From NCBI GenBank assembly GCA_019057795.1, contig JAHLWS010000065.1, forward strand, positions 1 to 64,000: a DNA stretch of 64,000 nucleotides, in the 5' to 3' direction. Shown here in pieces: positions 843 through 17,378 of this stretch (within the stretch, counting starts at the first letter, position 1; the number at the start of each line of letters is the position of its first letter). Under the pieces are notes generated by a model, which was given only the letters and a program-made list of their open reading frames with translations, was not told the DNA's origin and searched no databases. The position numbers were made by a program, and so were the translations under genes. The stretch comes from Promethearchaeota archaeon. Lineage in GTDB: Archaea > Asgardarchaeota > Lokiarchaeia > Sigyniarchaeales > SOKP01.

Positions 843-1727
843 TTAATTAGATGAAATATCTAATTGATTTTCTTTAAATCCCCATGATTTTAAAATCTCT
901 CCCGCTTCGTCCATAATTTCTTCGATGAAATCGCGTAAAGGAATGATTTCTTTTTGATGCGCTATAGCTGTTGATAATACGCTAGTTGCTTTTAATTCTC
1001 GATGGTACAGTTTTTTATGGTAATCTTCGGAAAATATATCCATGTCTAACCATTTCTTCTTCATCTCTTTAGGGACGGGACTTTCAGCTGTTGTAAGGAT
1101 TGCTGAACCAAGGCAAACACCATCTGCCCCCATAGCTAATGCCCCTAAGAATCCACGTGCGTCTCCAATTCCACCTGCGGCAATGATGGGAACGTTCAAT
1201 AACCGTTTTGCTATGGTTATATTTACTAAAGTTGTGTGTTGATAGGGATTTTTAAAACCTGAAGCTTCCATTCCAATTAAAGTAATAGCGTCAGCTCCCG
1301 CTCTTTCAGCCGAAATAGCGTGTCTAATCAAAGCACATTTGTGAATCCAATAGTTACCCGCTTCGTGAATCCTTTTTCCCAAATGAGTAGCTTGGTAAGC
1401 AGAAGTAAAAAAAACTTTCACACCTTCATTTATAGCAATGTCTAAATATTTTAAATAGTCATCTTTTGATACCTTAACATTTATAGCTCTCACGCCCGGA
1501 GGTAGCACAGTTAAATTAACACCAAAAGGCTTGTCCGTTAATTCTTTCATTTTTTGCAATTCGGATCTAAAATCACCGATCTGGTAATTCAAGGCAGTAA
1601 TAACCCCCAATCCACCAGCATTTGAGAACAATGCTGCAAATTCAGTTCTACCATACCCGGCAAAAGCGGCCATAATTAAAGGGTACTTAGTACCCGTCAT
1701 TTTATTTATTGAAGTTTTCCAAATCAT
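843..1727 (-). CDS. Nitronate monooxygenase / FabK-like flavin oxidoreductase
   Basis: SNAGGLG, TDKPFGVN, PIIAAGGIGDARG, GADGV motifs. Confidence 0.85.
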   Translation of the reverse strand: MIWKTSINKMTGTKYPLIMAAFAGYGRTEFAALFSNAGGLGVITALNYQIGDFRSELQKMKELTDKPFGVNLTVLPPGVRAINVKVSKDDYLKYLDIAINEGVKVFFTSAYQATHLGKRIHEAGNYWIHKCALIRHAISAERAGADAITLIGMEASGFKNPYQHTTLVNITIAKRLLNVPIIAAGGIGDARGFLGALAMGADGVCLGSAILTTAESPVPKEMKKKWLDMDIFSEDYHKKLYHRELKATSVLSTAIAHQKEIIPLRDFIEEIMDEAGEILKSWGFKENQLDISSN

Positions 1728-1792
1728 ATTGTAACACTATTCAATTGTTAATGTGTATTTAAAATATTGAAAGGTTTCTAAATCATACAAGG

Positions 1793-2650
1793 TTATAATT
1801 CTAATAACTTTTTTGCATTTTCACCGAGAATTTTTCTTCGAAACCCATCAGAAATAGGAATTTCTTTAACTGCGGGAATAATCTTGTTCCAATGTTTAAT
1901 TGGGTGATCTGAAGCAAATAATACTTTATCCTCAGCATTACTTTTAGAAAAAGCTTCAAAAGGAAACCACTGATATAGTTCAGGATATGCAGAAATATCA
2001 ATATAGACTTTGGGATGTCTAACAACTACGCTCCATGCATCCCAAAACCATGGAGTTCCCATGTGTCCCATTATAATTGTTAAATCTTGATGTTTAGATG
2101 CCAATACATCTACTAGCATTGGATGACCGTATTTTGTTATTGAACCTATTATTGATCCTAAATGTGCTGTGTGAGTCCAAAGAGGAATGTTAAAATCTAT
2201 CATTTTCTTCCATAAGGGGTCATATTTATTATCAGAAATGTCAAACTTCTGCGCTGGAGGTACAAGTTTGACACCTTTAAGTCCTAACGATGTTATAGCA
2301 TATTCAAGTTGATCCATAGCGTCATGTGCGGGAATATCAATACACGCAAATCCAATAAACTTCTCTGGATATTTCTCAACAAAATCCGCGACATTATCAT
2401 TTGTAACTATACATACACCGTAGGCTGTCGTAAGATTATATGATACAATTACAGCTTTATCAATACCGTATTTTTCCATCTGAGTAATATAATCATCAAT
2501 AGATATTTTTGTCTGTAGAACTTCATAAAATTTAAACATCGCACGACGGCCTTTTTTATTTGTACCAAGTAGAGCATTAGCTACAAAATCAAGATCGTCG
2601 CCCCAATCAGCCTCTTTACAAAAAGGATGAACATGCATATCAATAATCAT
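1793..2650 (-). CDS. Amidohydrolase_2 family protein
   Basis: IIDMHVH, GLKGVKL, IMGHMG, VLFASDHP, ILGENAKKL. Confidence 0.85.
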   Translation of the reverse strand: MIIDMHVHPFCKEADWGDDLDFVANALLGTNKKGRRAMFKFYEVLQTKISIDDYITQMEKYGIDKAVIVSYNLTTAYGVCIVTNDNVADFVEKYPEKFIGFACIDIPAHDAMDQLEYAITSLGLKGVKLVPPAQKFDISDNKYDPLWKKMIDFNIPLWTHTAHLGSIIGSITKYGHPMLVDVLASKHQDLTIIMGHMGTPWFWDAWSVVVRHPKVYIDISAYPELYQWFPFEAFSKSNAEDKVLFASDHPIKHWNKIIPAVKEIPISDGFRRKILGENAKKLLEL

Positions 2651-2721
2651 CTTAATAACTCCCCAGTTCCTTATAGATTTAAATTAAGTTAAGTATAATA
2701 TAAATTTTAAAATTAGATAAC

Positions 2722-4053
2722 TTATAAAAAATTATCTATAGTTCTCTGATTTTTAACGAAATTTATTAATTTACTGCTCTTTTTCCAATATTTATAGCTA
2801 ACCATGAAACCCTCCGCCATGCTTTTAATCGAATCGTCAAAATTATCGAGGATTTGCGGATTGTTTAGTTCCATTGCGTTTTTTACAGTCTCTCTGATAA
2901 CCCAAACACCTAATGGCACAATATAACCCCCTTGTACTTCGCGAAAGATTAGAATCCTTGCTTGTCTTCCGATCCGGTATAAATATTCGCAAACTTCCTT
3001 TCGAGCAGCGTAATAAGCACCCGTAATATTGCTTGCGTAACTCTTTCTCCCCCTATAAAATTCAAAATCAGTCATTATTTGAGGTTTTAAACTGCCAATA
3101 TTCCCATTGAGAGAAATGTTCCACAATGTATTGGGCGCCCAAACTTCGTTCATCTCATACGTGAATTTACCAGGAAAAAGAAGTATTTTAAAGTGATTAT
3201 CTAAGTAAGTTCTTTCAAAAATGCGATAATCATTTATTTCAGGAAATTTTTTAATCTCTTTAATTAGTGCCTTAGAGATGATGTCATCAACAGCGGTTAT
3301 ACTCCATCTAGTCGGAACAATTCGCCGTTTATTCTTTTCGCCTAACAAACCAGCTGAAAAAACCCTTTTAATTGTCGATTCTGGGACGCGTCCTTTAAAA
3401 TAGAGGTATTTTGATACTGCTTCCGTTGCTTTTAAATCGGTATCTGCAACGCAATAATCTACTTTTGGATGGACCTTTGTATTCTCTGTGATTCTTATTT
3501 TCTCAGTCATGCCAGTAGGACCCATAGGTAACGAATGATTATCCAGCAACATTCTTAAATTTATTTTTGGTAGCTTTGTTTCTGTATCTACAGGACGAGC
3601 TGCCATCGATAATTCTTGAGAAGTTTCGAGCAATTTTTGTGCCTTCATGGGGGGCGTGTTTTTACGGCTCCTTTTGCCAATATTAACATTGATTTTAAAA
3701 TTATTTCTTACCAAACTACTTCTATATCGAATAATATCAAGCATACTTTTTCCAAACCACAGTTCTGGAGCGTCTAAGATGTGGTAATCCGAAATTCTTT
3801 GATCTATTTCAAATTTTTGGAAAGGAACCAATGGTCCTAAATACACGTTAGGATAATTGAAATGACCGACGAAAAATCCTGGAGGGCTAGGTCCAGAAAG
3901 CTCTACATTTCGTAATGTTTTATCAAATTCAAATGGAACCAGCGATTTTAAAACAGATTTTTTTAATAAGATTGGGCATGTTTTCTTACCACATAATAAT
4001 CTCGCTCCTTTACAGCGTAAGCAGATGTTTTTTTCAGTTGGGGGTCGAACCAA
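2722..4053 (-). CDS. nreA: Archaeal DNA repair protein Nre
   Basis: N-terminal CLRCKG...CGKKTCP, VPTRWSITAVDD, GAYYAAR, PLGVWVIRE, C-terminal PIP box QRTIDNFL. Confidence 0.9.
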   Translation of the reverse strand: MVRPPTEKNICLRCKGARLLCGKKTCPILLKKSVLKSLVPFEFDKTLRNVELSGPSPPGFFVGHFNYPNVYLGPLVPFQKFEIDQRISDYHILDAPELWFGKSMLDIIRYRSSLVRNNFKINVNIGKRSRKNTPPMKAQKLLETSQELSMAARPVDTETKLPKINLRMLLDNHSLPMGPTGMTEKIRITENTKVHPKVDYCVADTDLKATEAVSKYLYFKGRVPESTIKRVFSAGLLGEKNKRRIVPTRWSITAVDDIISKALIKEIKKFPEINDYRIFERTYLDNHFKILLFPGKFTYEMNEVWAPNTLWNISLNGNIGSLKPQIMTDFEFYRGRKSYASNITGAYYAARKEVCEYLYRIGRQARILIFREVQGGYIVPLGVWVIRETVKNAMELNNPQILDNFDDSIKSMAEGFMVSYKYWKKSSKLINFVKNQRTIDNFL

Positions 4054-4261
4054 TCTTGTGTCTCTTTAAAAATTATTATCTTTATTAGAAAAGATTATAT
4101 TTATTATTAAAAAGGTAGACGAGTATAAATTTTTAATATTTATAAAAGAATTAATATAAATTTTTTATTGAATGTATGTGTTGTTGATGTTTATATTATT
4201 GATCATCAATTTATATAGAATGCCTTCTAATAAGGATTTATTATAATAATAATAAATACTT

Positions 4262-5245
4262 ATGAAAGCGATTGTATGCACAAAATACGGACCACCGGAT
4301 GTACTTCAGCTCAAAGAGGTAGATAAACCTACTCCCAAGGACAATGAAGTACTGGTCAAAGTTCATGCGGCATCCTTAAATGCCGCTGATTTGGATTACC
4401 TCAGAGGTAGGCCAATGGTCCGCATCGGGGGGCTTCGAAAACCAAGATATAAGATACTCGGATCTGACATAGCGGGGCGGGTTGAAGCAGTTGGCAGAAA
4501 TGTAAAGCAGTTTCAACCAGGTGATGATATATTCGTGGACTTATCCGTGTGTGGTTTTGGCGGTTTTGCAGAGTATGTATGTGTTCCTGAAAAACCATTA
4601 GCGCTGAAATCGGCCAGCATGACATTCGAGGAAGCAGCGACCCTACCTCAAGCAGCAATCCTCGCCTTGCAGGGTCTTCGCGATAAAAGTCAGATTCAGC
4701 CAGGTCAAAAGGTTTTGATTAATGGTGCGGGTGGTGGTGTGGGTACGTTTGCGGTGCAGATTGCCAAATTATTCGGGGCTGAAGTGACTGGCGTGGACAG
4801 CACGGAGAAATTGGACATGGTGCGCTCCATTGGTGCTGACCAGGTCATTGATTACACTCAAGAAGATTTCACCAAAAGTGGGCAGCGTTATGACCTGATT
4901 CTTGATGTTGTGGTATCTCGTTCAATTTCCGATTACAAGCGTGCTTTGAACCCCAAGGGAATTTTACGCATGGTCGGAGGTTCAATGGCTCGAGTTTTCA
5001 AAGTTATGTTCCTAGGATCATTGATTTCAAGGAGTAAGAAAATGGGTATCGTGATGTGGAAACCAAACAAAAAAGAAGATCTGGTTTTTTTGACTGAGCT
5101 TTTTGAAGCCGGCAAGATAGTCCCTATTATAGATAGATGTTACCCGTTAGGTGAGGTTGCTGAAGCTTTCCGGTACCTTGAAGAAGGACACCACCAAGGA
5201 AAATTAGTAATAACTATTGACAGTAAGAAAAATGAGTTTCCTTAG
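4262..5245 (+). CDS. NAD(P)-dependent medium-chain dehydrogenase / quinone oxidoreductase-like protein
   Basis: MKAIVCTKYGPPDVL, GSDIAGRVEAVG, VLINGAGGGVG, GKLVI. Confidence 0.9.
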   Translation: MKAIVCTKYGPPDVLQLKEVDKPTPKDNEVLVKVHAASLNAADLDYLRGRPMVRIGGLRKPRYKILGSDIAGRVEAVGRNVKQFQPGDDIFVDLSVCGFGGFAEYVCVPEKPLALKSASMTFEEAATLPQAAILALQGLRDKSQIQPGQKVLINGAGGGVGTFAVQIAKLFGAEVTGVDSTEKLDMVRSIGADQVIDYTQEDFTKSGQRYDLILDVVVSRSISDYKRALNPKGILRMVGGSMARVFKVMFLGSLISRSKKMGIVMWKPNKKEDLVFLTELFEAGKIVPIIDRCYPLGEVAEAFRYLEEGHHQGKLVITIDSKKNEFP

Positions 5246-15393: not shown

Positions 15394-16362
15394 TTAAATT
15401 TGGGACAATAGTTCAATTAATGCCCTCGGAATTTCTCTGTAATTATTTACGGCAAAAAACTTACCTTGCCCCGCTTTAGCAATTTCTCTGCACGTATCGA
15501 TGCCGCTTGCGGCATCATTTTTGGCAGGTATCCCTATTACATGTAGTTTAGGATATTTTTTCGCTAATTCGATTGGGTTATCCCCTCTATTATAGTTACC
15601 GTCACTAATTAAAATTCCAAATTTGTTTCTTGTTCTTTCTTTAATTTTATCTAATTCTTTCAATCCTTTCTCTAAACCAATATTTATATTAGTAAACCCA
15701 ACCGCCTCAGAATCCAAGATTTCGTCGATTATTGTTATAATTGGCTTTTTTTCGTCAATTTTTTTTAGAACCATTGCGGTAGAGTTGAATAAAACTATAC
15801 CATAATCTTCTTTTTCCATATTATAGGCTAAAACGGAAGTAGTGAGAGCGGCATTAAGCAAAAGTTTGCCGTACATGCTTCCACTTGTGTCAAGAATCAG
15901 AATAATTTTCCTTTTCTGTCGTTGTCTTCTTATTCCGTAGATGTCTTTATAAGTTAAGCTTTTTTTGTAAATGTTCAATGGATTGTGCTGGATAGTTTCA
16001 TCCAAGTCAAACTCTGGCATCCCAATATGATAATAAGGGACAGTTTTCTTATAATTTCCTCTAATTCCCTTACTTGTTATTTTTAAAGAAGTTTTCAATA
16101 TGCTCTGTCTGGCTAGCCTTCTAAAAATTTTTTTGTATTTTTCTGAAATTGGGCGTCTTATAAAAAAGTAGACTTCTGCCATAGAGGTTTCAGAATTTTT
16201 TGCTTTTTCTGTGAAGAACTTCACGCCTTCGTCACAATCCAAAGCGTCGGTTGAGGCGTATACATTTGACTTAAGTAAGCCTAATATTGCTTCGAGATTC
16301 TTGTATTGAATAGCTAAGTAAGTCAGTTCCTTAATTTGTTTGTAGTCTAATGTATTTGCCAA
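15394..16362 (-). CDS. vWA-domain protein resembling the ChlD C-terminus; may be expressed as a frameshift fusion with the upstream ATPase
   Basis: MIDAS motifs ILDTSGSM, GFTNI, ISDG; the frame stays open upstream of the TTG into the 3' end of the ATPase gene. Confidence 0.85.
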   Translation of the reverse strand: MANTLDYKQIKELTYLAIQYKNLEAILGLLKSNVYASTDALDCDEGVKFFTEKAKNSETSMAEVYFFIRRPISEKYKKIFRRLARQSILKTSLKITSKGIRGNYKKTVPYYHIGMPEFDLDETIQHNPLNIYKKSLTYKDIYGIRRQRQKRKIILILDTSGSMYGKLLLNAALTTSVLAYNMEKEDYGIVLFNSTAMVLKKIDEKKPIITIIDEILDSEAVGFTNINIGLEKGLKELDKIKERTRNKFGILISDGNYNRGDNPIELAKKYPKLHVIGIPAKNDAASGIDTCREIAKAGQGKFFAVNNYREIPRALIELLSQI

Positions 16363-16505
16363 ATGCTGGTAATAATCTGGTTTTTTCCTTTTTTTCCGAA
16401 TTATTTCAAATCTTAAGATCTCTCCGTCGGGAATCCTTTCAGTAAGTCTAACATGAAGTCTTTTACTCTCAATCTCCTCGGAATCCTCCGCAGAGAAATC
16501 ATCGA

Positions 16506-17378
16506 TTATTGAAAATCCATTTTGTTTAAAACTGATAGTACAATATCTGTGATAATTTCGGTTTTAGAACTGGTTACGCCATCTTCAAGGTCAATCTTGT
16601 TATACAAAGCCATGATTGCCGCTTCGACCCAATTTTTTGAACTGTTTTCATTTTCCGATTTAGAAATTAACTCTGCCAAATCAATAGCGCCTCTTATCGA
16701 ACTACCCCTGCGAATTGAAGTAATATTTCTTGAAATTTGAACTATTTGTTGTGAAATCATTGCGATTTTATCGCTACTAGGATTACTCAGATTGGCTTCT
16801 TGTTTAATAATGAGAATTTCTTCTTCAGGAGGTTGGAAATCTAGTTTTACCCAAATAAATCTATCTTTTAAAGCCTCTCCTATAACGGTCACGCCTATAT
16901 GAGCAGCAGGATTTTGTGTGGCAATGACAAAAAACTTTTTATGAGCTTTAATTGTTTTTAGTTTAGGTATTTCTATCGTGCCTTCGTCTAATGCAGTTAA
17001 AAGAGAGTTTTGAGTGCTCTCAGGCATTCTGTTGATTTCATTAATAAAAAGACAGCCCCCTTTGAGCATCGATGAAGTGAGTGGCCCATAAACGTAAGCG
17101 TCTTCTATATAACCCTTTGAAATCACCATTGGTGGATCCCAATAGCCAACTAAATTATGAGCAAGCGTTTCTTCTGAACAGTCTATTCGAGCAAAACCAA
17201 TATCGTAATAAGAAGCAATAGCTTTTGCGATCCTGGTCTTACCAACACCTACAGAACCTTCAATTATAATATTTTTTCTAACTGTTCTTGCCAGAATAAT
17301 TTTTTTTAATTCTTCAGTTCTTCCAATGATTTTGTATTTACTTTGTATCTCTTTCACAATCTCAGAAGCATTTACCAT
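16506..17378 (-). CDS. MoxR-type AAA+ ATPase
   Basis: Walker A GSVGVGKT, Walker B-like FINEINR, ATQNP, EALKDRF, SIRGAI. Confidence 0.88.
   Translation of the reverse strand: MVNASEIVKEIQSKYKIIGRTEELKKIILARTVRKNIIIEGSVGVGKTRIAKAIASYYDIGFARIDCSEETLAHNLVGYWDPPMVISKGYIEDAYVYGPLTSSMLKGGCLFINEINRMPESTQNSLLTALDEGTIEIPKLKTIKAHKKFFVIATQNPAAHIGVTVIGEALKDRFIWVKLDFQPPEEEILIIKQEANLSNPSSDKIAMISQQIVQISRNITSIRRGSSIRGAIDLAELISKSENENSSKNWVEAAIMALYNKIDLEDGVTSSKTEIITDIVLSVLNKMDFQ
16524..16530 (-). other. Candidate -1 ribosomal frameshift slippery site T TTA AAC
   Basis: In-phase X XXY YYZ heptamer 5 codons before the ATPase stop; the -1 frame is open from here to the vWA stop. Confidence 0.6.

Follow-up and report, generated by a model that had tools for sequence, protein, structure and literature searches.

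The stretch of DNA analyzed here, hereafter the window, comprises 64,000 nucleotides (nt) of contig JAHLWS010000065.1 (assembly GCA_019057795.1, Promethearchaeota archaeon) and has a guanine-cytosine (GC) content of 32%. On its minus strand an open reading frame (ORF) for a MoxR-class AAA+ ATPase of 290 amino acids (aa) overlaps a second frame, which encodes a vWA domain protein and lies in the -1 frame relative to the ATPase. Inspection of the window alone (the original prediction) had led to the suggestion that a programmed -1 frameshift joins the two. The present analysis compares this locus with its relatives across the Asgard phylum, and points to such a frameshift at a site other than the one first proposed.

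The assignment of the ATPase to the MoxR class is supported by matches to the Pfam families AAA_5 (70.7 bits) and AAA_3 (70.5 bits), both above the Pfam gathering score. Its Walker A motif reads GSVGVGKT and its Walker B motif LFINE (residues 110-114), with asparagine where aspartate is canonical (hhhhNE, not hhhhDE), a replacement already noted in the original prediction. All 49 scorable Asgard orthologs share this Asn-Glu pair, as do 39 of the 42 in-frame fused homologs (see below); the other three have E. Judged by this conservation, the exchange of Asp for Asn is a family trait across the phylum and not a lesion. The 3′ end of the gene reads GTT TTA AAC AAA ATG GAT TTT CAA TAA.

The vWA frame contains no stop between 16563 and its terminating codon at 15396-15394, and displays Pfam matches to VWA (PF00092, 39 bits), VWA_2 and VWA_CoxE, with an intact metal ion-dependent adhesion site (MIDAS) motif. 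An AlphaFold model of the part that would follow the shift point (41 aligned sequences) has a mean predicted local distance difference test score (pLDDT) of 82.8: residues 1-22 are disordered, confident helices start at residue 29, and a helical domain (residues 29-146) is followed by the vWA fold. The linker sequence of the -1 frame is ..QNGFSIIDDFSAEDSEEIESK, and its portion after the shift point, SIIDDFSAEDSEEIESK, is acidic, in agreement with the original prediction. The predicted trans-frame junction in the window is ..MDF-SIIDDFSAEDSEEIESK, and the predicted tryptic junction peptide of the trans-frame product is MDFSIIDDFSAEDSEEIESK. The features placed by the original prediction, namely the end of the ATPase ORF, the in-phase heptamer T_TTA_AAC (16530-16524), the -1 vWA frame, the TTG codon, the hairpin core and LFINE, were all recovered at their positions (Table 1).

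Table 1. Features of the ATPase-vWA locus, in coordinates of the window
Feature	Position	Strand	Basis or remark
MoxR-class AAA+ ATPase ORF, 290 aa	16506..17378	minus	Pfam AAA_5/AAA_3 matches
Walker A, GSVGVGKT	17258-17235	minus	
Walker B, LFINE	17051-17037	minus	residues 110-114
Stop codon TAA of the ATPase	16508-16506	minus	
TAA in -1 frame, bounding the open vWA frame of this genome on its upstream side	16564..16566	minus	
Heptamer T_TTA_AAC, in phase, lineage-specific	16524..16530	minus	only L001-L004
Conserved candidate shift site G_GAT_TTT_C	16511..16518	minus	conservation in 32 family sequences and 33 of 36 lineages
TTT codon (Phe289) of the candidate shift site	16514-16512	minus	T16515 in phase before it
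Part of the predicted trans-frame product in the -1 frame, 372 codons and stop	15394..16512	minus	Pfam, AlphaFold model
Acidic linker, residues 1-22 of the -1 part	16512-16447	minus	
Helical domain, residues 29-146 of the -1 part	16428-16075	minus	AlphaFold model
First canonical start candidate (TTG) in the vWA frame	16360..16362	minus	residue 51 of the -1 part; not conserved
First ATG of the vWA frame	16182-16180	minus	residue 111 of the -1 part
vWA domain	about 15906-15427	minus	
MIDAS motif, DTSGS	15891-15877	minus	
RNA element UC-GAU-GA-UU-(hairpin 16496-16473)-UU-GA-GA	16467..16505	minus	conservation in 32 sequences, lineage survey
Hairpin UCUCU.CGGA-GGAU-UCCG.GGAGA	16496-16473	minus	
Hairpin core CGGA-GGAT-TCCG	16490-16479	minus	
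Invariant UCGAUGA	16505-16499	minus	32 family sequences
Invariant GAGA	16470-16467	minus	32 family sequences
Candidate 3-nt bulge GAU	16503-16501	minus	
Candidate tandem G.A pairs	G16500/A16499 with G16470/A16469	minus	
Candidate outer helix, 2 bp	U16505-A16467, C16504-G16468	minus	

Frame relation, missing start codon and fused homologs

An ortholog of the locus is present in 184 of 301 genomes of the Asgard phylum, and three single-contig genomes from the order of the window (G032, G033, G038) carry it. Orthologous loci were compared in 55 cases, 20 from the genus, 15 from other families of the order and 20 from across the phylum. Within the genus the ATPases are 69-98% and the vWA parts 73-97% identical, and vWA identity amounts to 37-47% in the order-level loci and 35-44% in the phylum-level loci. 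The comparison establishes the frame relation: the vWA part lies in the -1 frame of the ATPase in 54 of the 55 loci, with L038 as the sole exception. The original prediction had looked to such an alignment for a conserved frame offset, for naturally fused versions and for a conserved heptamer; the first two were found and the third was not.

By the same comparison, a common start codon for the vWA frame is missing. An alignment of the N-terminal 115 vWA-frame residues displays no column-conserved ATG, GTG or TTG in its first ~60 columns, and the starts that do occur are scattered. The first start candidates are spread from +5 to +605 nt past the ATPase stop, one locus (L043) having none before +605. 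The first candidate in the window, TTG 16362, lies 54 codons past the heptamer T_TTA_AAC and is missing from L002 and most other congeners. By their residue numbers both this TTG and the first ATG therefore fall inside the confidently folded helical domain. A conserved independent vWA start, which according to the original prediction would speak against a frameshift, is thus lacking as a conserved column, and a few lineages do have possible starts, among them L038 with an ATG of its own (see below). The ATG at 16502, mentioned in the same context, sits in the ATPase (0) frame and not in that of the vWA protein.

Coding constraint reaches up to the junction. In the 57 codons past the ATPase stop the loci of the genus display a clear codon periodicity, with 28 of 53, 13 of 52 and 47 of 52 columns variable at codon positions 1, 2 and 3, respectively, and the homology found by tblastn for the vWA frame sets in within a few residues of the shift site, also where identity is as low as 37-47%. 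Close vWA homologs, whose sources are labelled Promethearchaeota, Lokiarchaeota or Hermodarchaeota archaeon, are given lengths of 294 to 367 aa in public gene calls, a spread that fits arbitrary picks of a start.

No in-frame fusion is among the listed open frames of the orthologs in the phylum, all of which measure 296-401 aa. When the ATPase was used to search for longer proteins, 42 homologs with AAA+ and vWA fused in frame were obtained; they measure 563-719 aa and come from Bathyarchaeia, Njordarchaeales, Promethearchaeota and others. One of these, P0133 (647 aa), is 40% identical to the vWA frame of the window over residues 20-384, and the DNA at its junction contains neither a T-run nor a stop; in another, P0137 (710 aa), the sequence AAC TTT TTT CGT is read straight through in frame. 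The existence of these fused homologs argues that the full-length polypeptide is a functional form in nature, and fused homologs have been used in the same kind of argument for the frameshifted chlD genes, fs-chlD (PMC3711429). On a contig of Njordarchaeales type (L079, ENA) the fused P0137 gene lies directly after a gene for a Cdc48-like double-AAA protein and before the gene for RNA polymerase subunit L.

Candidate shift site and downstream RNA element

The original prediction had placed the slip at the heptamer T_TTA_AAC. This site was considered and rejected, as it occurs only in the window and its three closest relatives (L001-L004), and a TAA in the -1 frame stands downstream of its position in 14 of the 20 congeners. 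Conserved across the orthologs is a T_TTT, which in the window forms part of the candidate shift site G_GAT_TTT_C, one codon ahead of the stop. A tRNA-Phe that moves back by one base meets TTT again at this site, and TCA then follows as codon of the -1 frame. The sequence GGATTTT is (nearly) invariant among 32 sequences of the family. In the 14 congeners mentioned above the -1-frame TAA ends 13 nt before the ATPase stop, so that the interval available for a shift is 13 nt long and holds only G_GAT_TTT (A GCG GAT TTT CAA TAA or a close variant).

Beyond the family, an in-phase T_TTT is found 0-2 codons ahead of the stop in 33 of 36 representative lineages, compared with 0.9% of codons in the bodies of the ATPase genes, and over these 36 lineages the ATPase ends in ..F-stop, ..F-x-stop or ..FF-x-stop. 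A full heptamer, T_TTT_TTC or T_TTT_TTA, is present in 8 of the 33 lineages with T_TTT. Three genomes of 52-61% GC retain GAT TTT TTC, with TTT:TTC ratios of 7:19, 6:18 and 2:20 and with only 13-30% of C/T-ending codons ending in T. T_TTT is therefore kept against codon bias; the run is thus conserved at synonymous positions too, and reflects more than a conserved phenylalanine.

An RNA element begins 6 nt past the TTT codon, and the stable stem of the window 15 nt past it. The original prediction had described a short hairpin with the core CGGA-GGAT-TCCG, further downstream than a typical stimulator. That core is present, and turns out to be the inner part of a longer conserved hairpin within an element that starts close to the TTT. 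Over 36 lineages, the 50 nt starting just before the stop are more stable than windows of the same size elsewhere in the same genes (mean z -1.08); 15 of the 36 loci, which are related to each other, fall into the lowest decile of folding energy downstream of the stop, and six lineages show nothing. Within the genus 88% of cells of the hairpin alignment pair, and two pairs display compensatory changes. Invariant in all 32 family sequences, third codon positions included, are UCGAUGA and GAGA on the two sides of the hairpin. An Rfam search at the junction gave no family above noise. Taking these data together, what speaks for the hairpin with GA flanks in the family of the window is conservation rather than covariation of its sequences.

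Tandem G.A pairs flanking a helix beside a 3-nt bulge are the mark of a kink-turn, the motif of box C/D type that L7Ae binds. The element of the window's family resembles this at the level of sequence, with GAUGA ... GA flanking a helix, a 3-nt bulge GAU or AAU, and U.U beside the tandem G.A positions; the two U.U positions become U.G, U-A or C-G in five species. Other families have a GA-stem-NNN-GA layout that begins 2-10 nt past the stop; it is present in 17 of 36 lineages, compared with 14 of 1872 control windows (0.75%) and 35 of 4994 ordinary hairpins of at least 5 bp. Its bulge is GAU in 13 lineages and AAU in two. The outer flanks are joined by 3-6 Watson-Crick pairs in about 11 of the 17, with sequences that differ between lineages. 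Against a kink-turn, the candidate outer (C) helix of the window has only two pairs, both invariant, the orientation of the GA flanks relative to the hairpin differs between the window's family and the others, and a conserved (S/P)-D-(D/E) peptide explains part of the GAUGA conservation. An assignment of the element to the kink-turns may thus be entertained as a tentative reading, somewhat less probable than the opposite.

In many species of the family (L059, L062-L065, L067, L075) the inner hairpin reads U-GA-GG...UC-UGA-A in the columns of window positions 16491-16478, which gives a second tandem G.A/A.G within the stem, where the window has G.A plus C-G. A different register for the hairpin, GA-UUUCUC...GAGGAG-AUU-GA, was rejected, as it fails in congeners with A at the partner column.

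Proposed mechanism and alternative explanations

Based on this dataset, we consider it likely that a programmed -1 ribosomal frameshift at G_GAU_UUU_C links the ATPase to the vWA domain, and most likely that the one locus gives a short ATPase of 290 aa and an ATPase-linker-vWA product of 661 aa, which are the two products of the original prediction. The frame relation in 54 of 55 loci, the missing start, the conserved in-phase U-run, the codon periodicity and the fused homologs support this interpretation, as do the confident helices ahead of the first start candidates, the stability of the RNA past the stop and the conventional layout of a paralogous pair in the same genome (see below). What follows we infer from them: that the ribosome slips at all, how efficiently it does so, what the RNA element contributes and how the products assemble. 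Ribosomes on the ATPase mRNA would reach GAU UUU CAA UAA, where most passes would terminate and yield the 290-aa ATPase. In a fraction of passes, tRNA-Phe on UUU (16514-16512) would slip one base back onto the overlapping UUU, and decoding would go on with UCA AUA AUC GAU.. to a 661-aa protein, composed of ATPase residues 1-289, a flexible acidic linker of 22 residues, the helical domain and the vWA/MIDAS domain. The nearby zero-frame stop probably aids the slip, as does, probably, the RNA element 6 nt downstream with its hairpin and GA...GA flanks, possibly as a kink-turn to which L7Ae binds. In the ATPase ring, one or a few subunits would be of the long form, with the adaptor domain covalently attached, and the ratio of short to long subunits would be set by the frequency of the slip. 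A more specific model, in which a real frameshift is driven or tuned by binding of the ribosomal protein L7Ae to a kink-turn 6-8 nt behind the U_UUU slip site, appears rather unlikely in our estimate.

Several observations weigh against a frameshift at this site. The site of the window is not a full X_XXY_YYZ heptamer, so that re-pairing is possible for a single tRNA, which usually means low efficiency, and the terminal phenylalanine could be conserved for reasons that lie in the protein. The hairpin of the window, taken alone, lacks significant stability: it folds with -11.8 kcal/mol (z -0.83), and 39 of 200 shuffled sequences fold at least as well. Covariation among the 32 family sequences is weak, with an invariant core stem and with almost as good pairing after a slide by -2 columns. 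L038 has a +1 offset and an ATG of its own for the vWA part 7 nt after the stop. Other junctions contain possible starts as well: L042, L050 and L054 end in TTT TGA with a TTG overlapping the stop, L045 lacks the T-run (AAC CCT TGA) and has a TTGA overlap, and L035 has a GTGA overlap. In five loci (L040, L041, L046, L047, L051) a motif RG(R/K)M is conserved ~+60 nt past the ATPase stop, and its ATG is preceded at 4-5 nt by GAGG. The counts given above also overstate independence, because the compared loci are related.

The ATG of the RG(R/K)M motif may serve those families as an additional, independent start for a vWA protein devoid of the linker; no equivalent of it was found in the family of the window. 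Some lineages, judging from L038, from the TTGA and GTGA overlaps and from this ATG, probably have independent starts or have switched to them. The variant junctions suggest evolutionary traffic between fused, frameshifted and separate forms, and by their sequence those of L035, L038, L042, L045, L050 and L054 look like transitions between frameshifting and coupled initiation.

The occurrence of TTGA, GTGA or ATG near the stop in some lineages shows that coupling does occur in this gene family, and hence bears on the alternative that fares best, that of two separate proteins. In this case the vWA part would initiate at a non-canonical codon, ATA (16510-16508) or ATC (16507-16505), either de novo or by coupling of termination and reinitiation. 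ATA or ATC follows at the stop in 32 of 32 family sequences. No single start codon is invariant, however, the ATC being GTC in L003 and L065 and the ATA being GTA in seven sequences. In other families, CTA, TTA, GTA and similar codons stand at the stop in the -1 frame, and some loci (e.g. L025, L027) have no ATH for up to about 20 codons. A Shine-Dalgarno-like motif ahead of the stop is absent from the window, and initiation at such codons would leave unexplained both the in-phase T_TTT kept against codon bias and the fixed -1 offset. We therefore regard separate initiation as unlikely.

Since the conserved element is a homopolymer run, which extends to 6 T in L033-L035, L040, L046, L049, L053 and L055, it may also be asked whether the polymerase makes some transcripts with a T-run that is one base shorter or two bases longer, with standard translation then producing the fusion. 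Run length does raise the efficiency of fs-chlD (PMC3711429). On the other hand, the run has only 4 T in the window and most lineages, while about 7 or more are required at known slippage sites (A >7, T >8 as cited in PMC3711429). Furthermore, the codon phase of the run (T_TTT) is conserved, which matters to ribosomes and not to the polymerase, and a downstream structure at a distance of 6-8 nt fits ribosomal frameshifting. Transcriptional slippage appears improbable in view of these points.

An ordinary gene pair, in which TTG 16362 or an ATG further on serves as start of the vWA protein and the preceding open frame stays untranslated, would agree with the ORF listing, which places the start at this TTG, and with the public annotations of 294-367 aa. 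It is opposed by the lack of the TTG in L002 and most other congeners, by the codon periodicity upstream of it, by conserved blocks and confident helices (residues 29-52) in the same region, and by an open stretch of 67 codons that is unexpected at 32% GC, so that very little speaks for it. Finally, an indel in assembly or sequencing, named in the original prediction as a possible refutation, or a decaying fused gene (pseudogene) has nothing for it beyond the frame break itself and is excluded, because the same break is kept in 54 of 55 independent assemblies across the phylum and both parts are under purifying selection.

Relation to known systems

In fs-chlD genes, -1 frameshifting yields ChlI-like and ChlD-like subunits from one gene (Antonov et al. 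2013, PMC3711429; Kuznetsov et al. 2022, PMC9227772; review PMC5009743), as confirmed by reporters in E. coli with 10-63% on poly-A sites. The Asgard locus resembles them in several respects: one locus would give both a short AAA+ and a long AAA+-linker-vWA protein by a -1 shift where the AAA+ ORF ends, other lineages have in-frame fused homologs, and an acidic linker is followed by a vWA domain with MIDAS. It differs in the class of the ATPase, which is AAA_5/AAA_3 of MoxR type and reaches 20.2 bits against TIGR02031 (BchD-ChlD), far below the cut-off of 499.55. A match to PF01078 (26.5 bits) covers residues 105-158 only, and no stretch passes alone. It also differs in its slip site, U_UUU_N beside the stop, in place of A_AAA_AAR or longer poly-A (PMC3711429, PMC5009743), and in being spread over the Asgard phylum and predicted from sequence comparison. 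No chelatase context is found among the neighbouring genes, the rest of the genome not having been searched for CobN/ChlH. Of the resemblance to ChlD that the original prediction had pointed out, the layout of AAA+, acidic linker and vWA holds and kinship at the level of the family does not: by its profile scores the Asgard protein is not a member of the ChlD family.

By sequence and predicted fold it belongs instead with the MoxR-vWA pairs NorQ/NorD and CbbQ/CbbO (PDB 9qhd, 9qh6, 6l1q, 5c3c), in which an AAA_5 ATPase is combined with a partner that carries a C-terminal vWA/MIDAS domain. Among PDB chains the ATPase scores 40.8 bits to CbbQ and 38.8 bits to NorQ, and the vWA model matches NorD chains (9qhd_G, E 2e-7, TMq 0.43; 9qh6_G, TMq 0.45). 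These pairs differ in being two genes with their own starts, whereas the Asgard partner is startless and overlaps in the -1 frame, and the Asgard ATPase has Asn-Glu in Walker B. A special kinship of the ATPase with eukaryotic midasin was considered as well and rejected. The 129 bits to Rea1/Mdn1 (6i27_A and others) are a sum over six AAA modules, and the best single module (43 bits) falls below the bacterial MoxR 2r44 (52.6 bits), hence no specific link to midasin is indicated.

According to a 2021 review (PMC8211752), fucA1 is the only cellular archaeal gene for which a -1 frameshift has been demonstrated experimentally. The gene of Sulfolobus solfataricus likewise is split into zero and -1 ORFs, with a slippery run and a putative stem-loop; it differs in using A_AAA_AAT, in being confined to a few strains and in giving one useful product, while the Asgard case is phylum-wide and two useful products are expected. 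Full-text literature searches found no report of a frameshift in Asgard archaea or of a MoxR-vWA frameshift, and a kink-turn as frameshift stimulator is mentioned neither in PMC8211752 nor in the available part of PMC5009743.

Conservation of a frameshift throughout a phylum, and this among the prokaryotes most closely related to eukaryotes, would make the Asgard locus a strong new case. If the frameshift is real, the annotation of hundreds of truncated 'VWA domain-containing proteins' would be corrected, and the locus would provide a natural system in which the subunit ratio of an AAA+ ring and its adaptor may be set by how often the ribosome slips. Should the kink-turn reading hold, the element would be the first frameshift stimulator of that type. 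If the model involving L7Ae were true, a trans-acting protein would set the ratio of short and long subunits of an AAA+ machine across the Asgard phylum, by a cellular frameshift signal that depends on a protein, a type not yet described.

The genes near the locus encode an S9/alpha-beta hydrolase-like protein, a GNAT protein, an HTH_10 protein and a cupin, and give no clue to the substrate of the ATPase-vWA system. A paralogous pair is present on another contig of the same genome (L076, G000:C53:21800-26200), where an AAA_5 ORF (3593-4366, minus strand) is followed by a vWA/CoxE-like ORF of 837 aa (1061-3574, minus strand). Its arrangement is conventional: a stop, an 18-nt spacer that contains GGGGT, and then an ATG. 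Such an AAA_5/vWA paralog, ~25% identical in the vWA part, is found in every genome of the genus.

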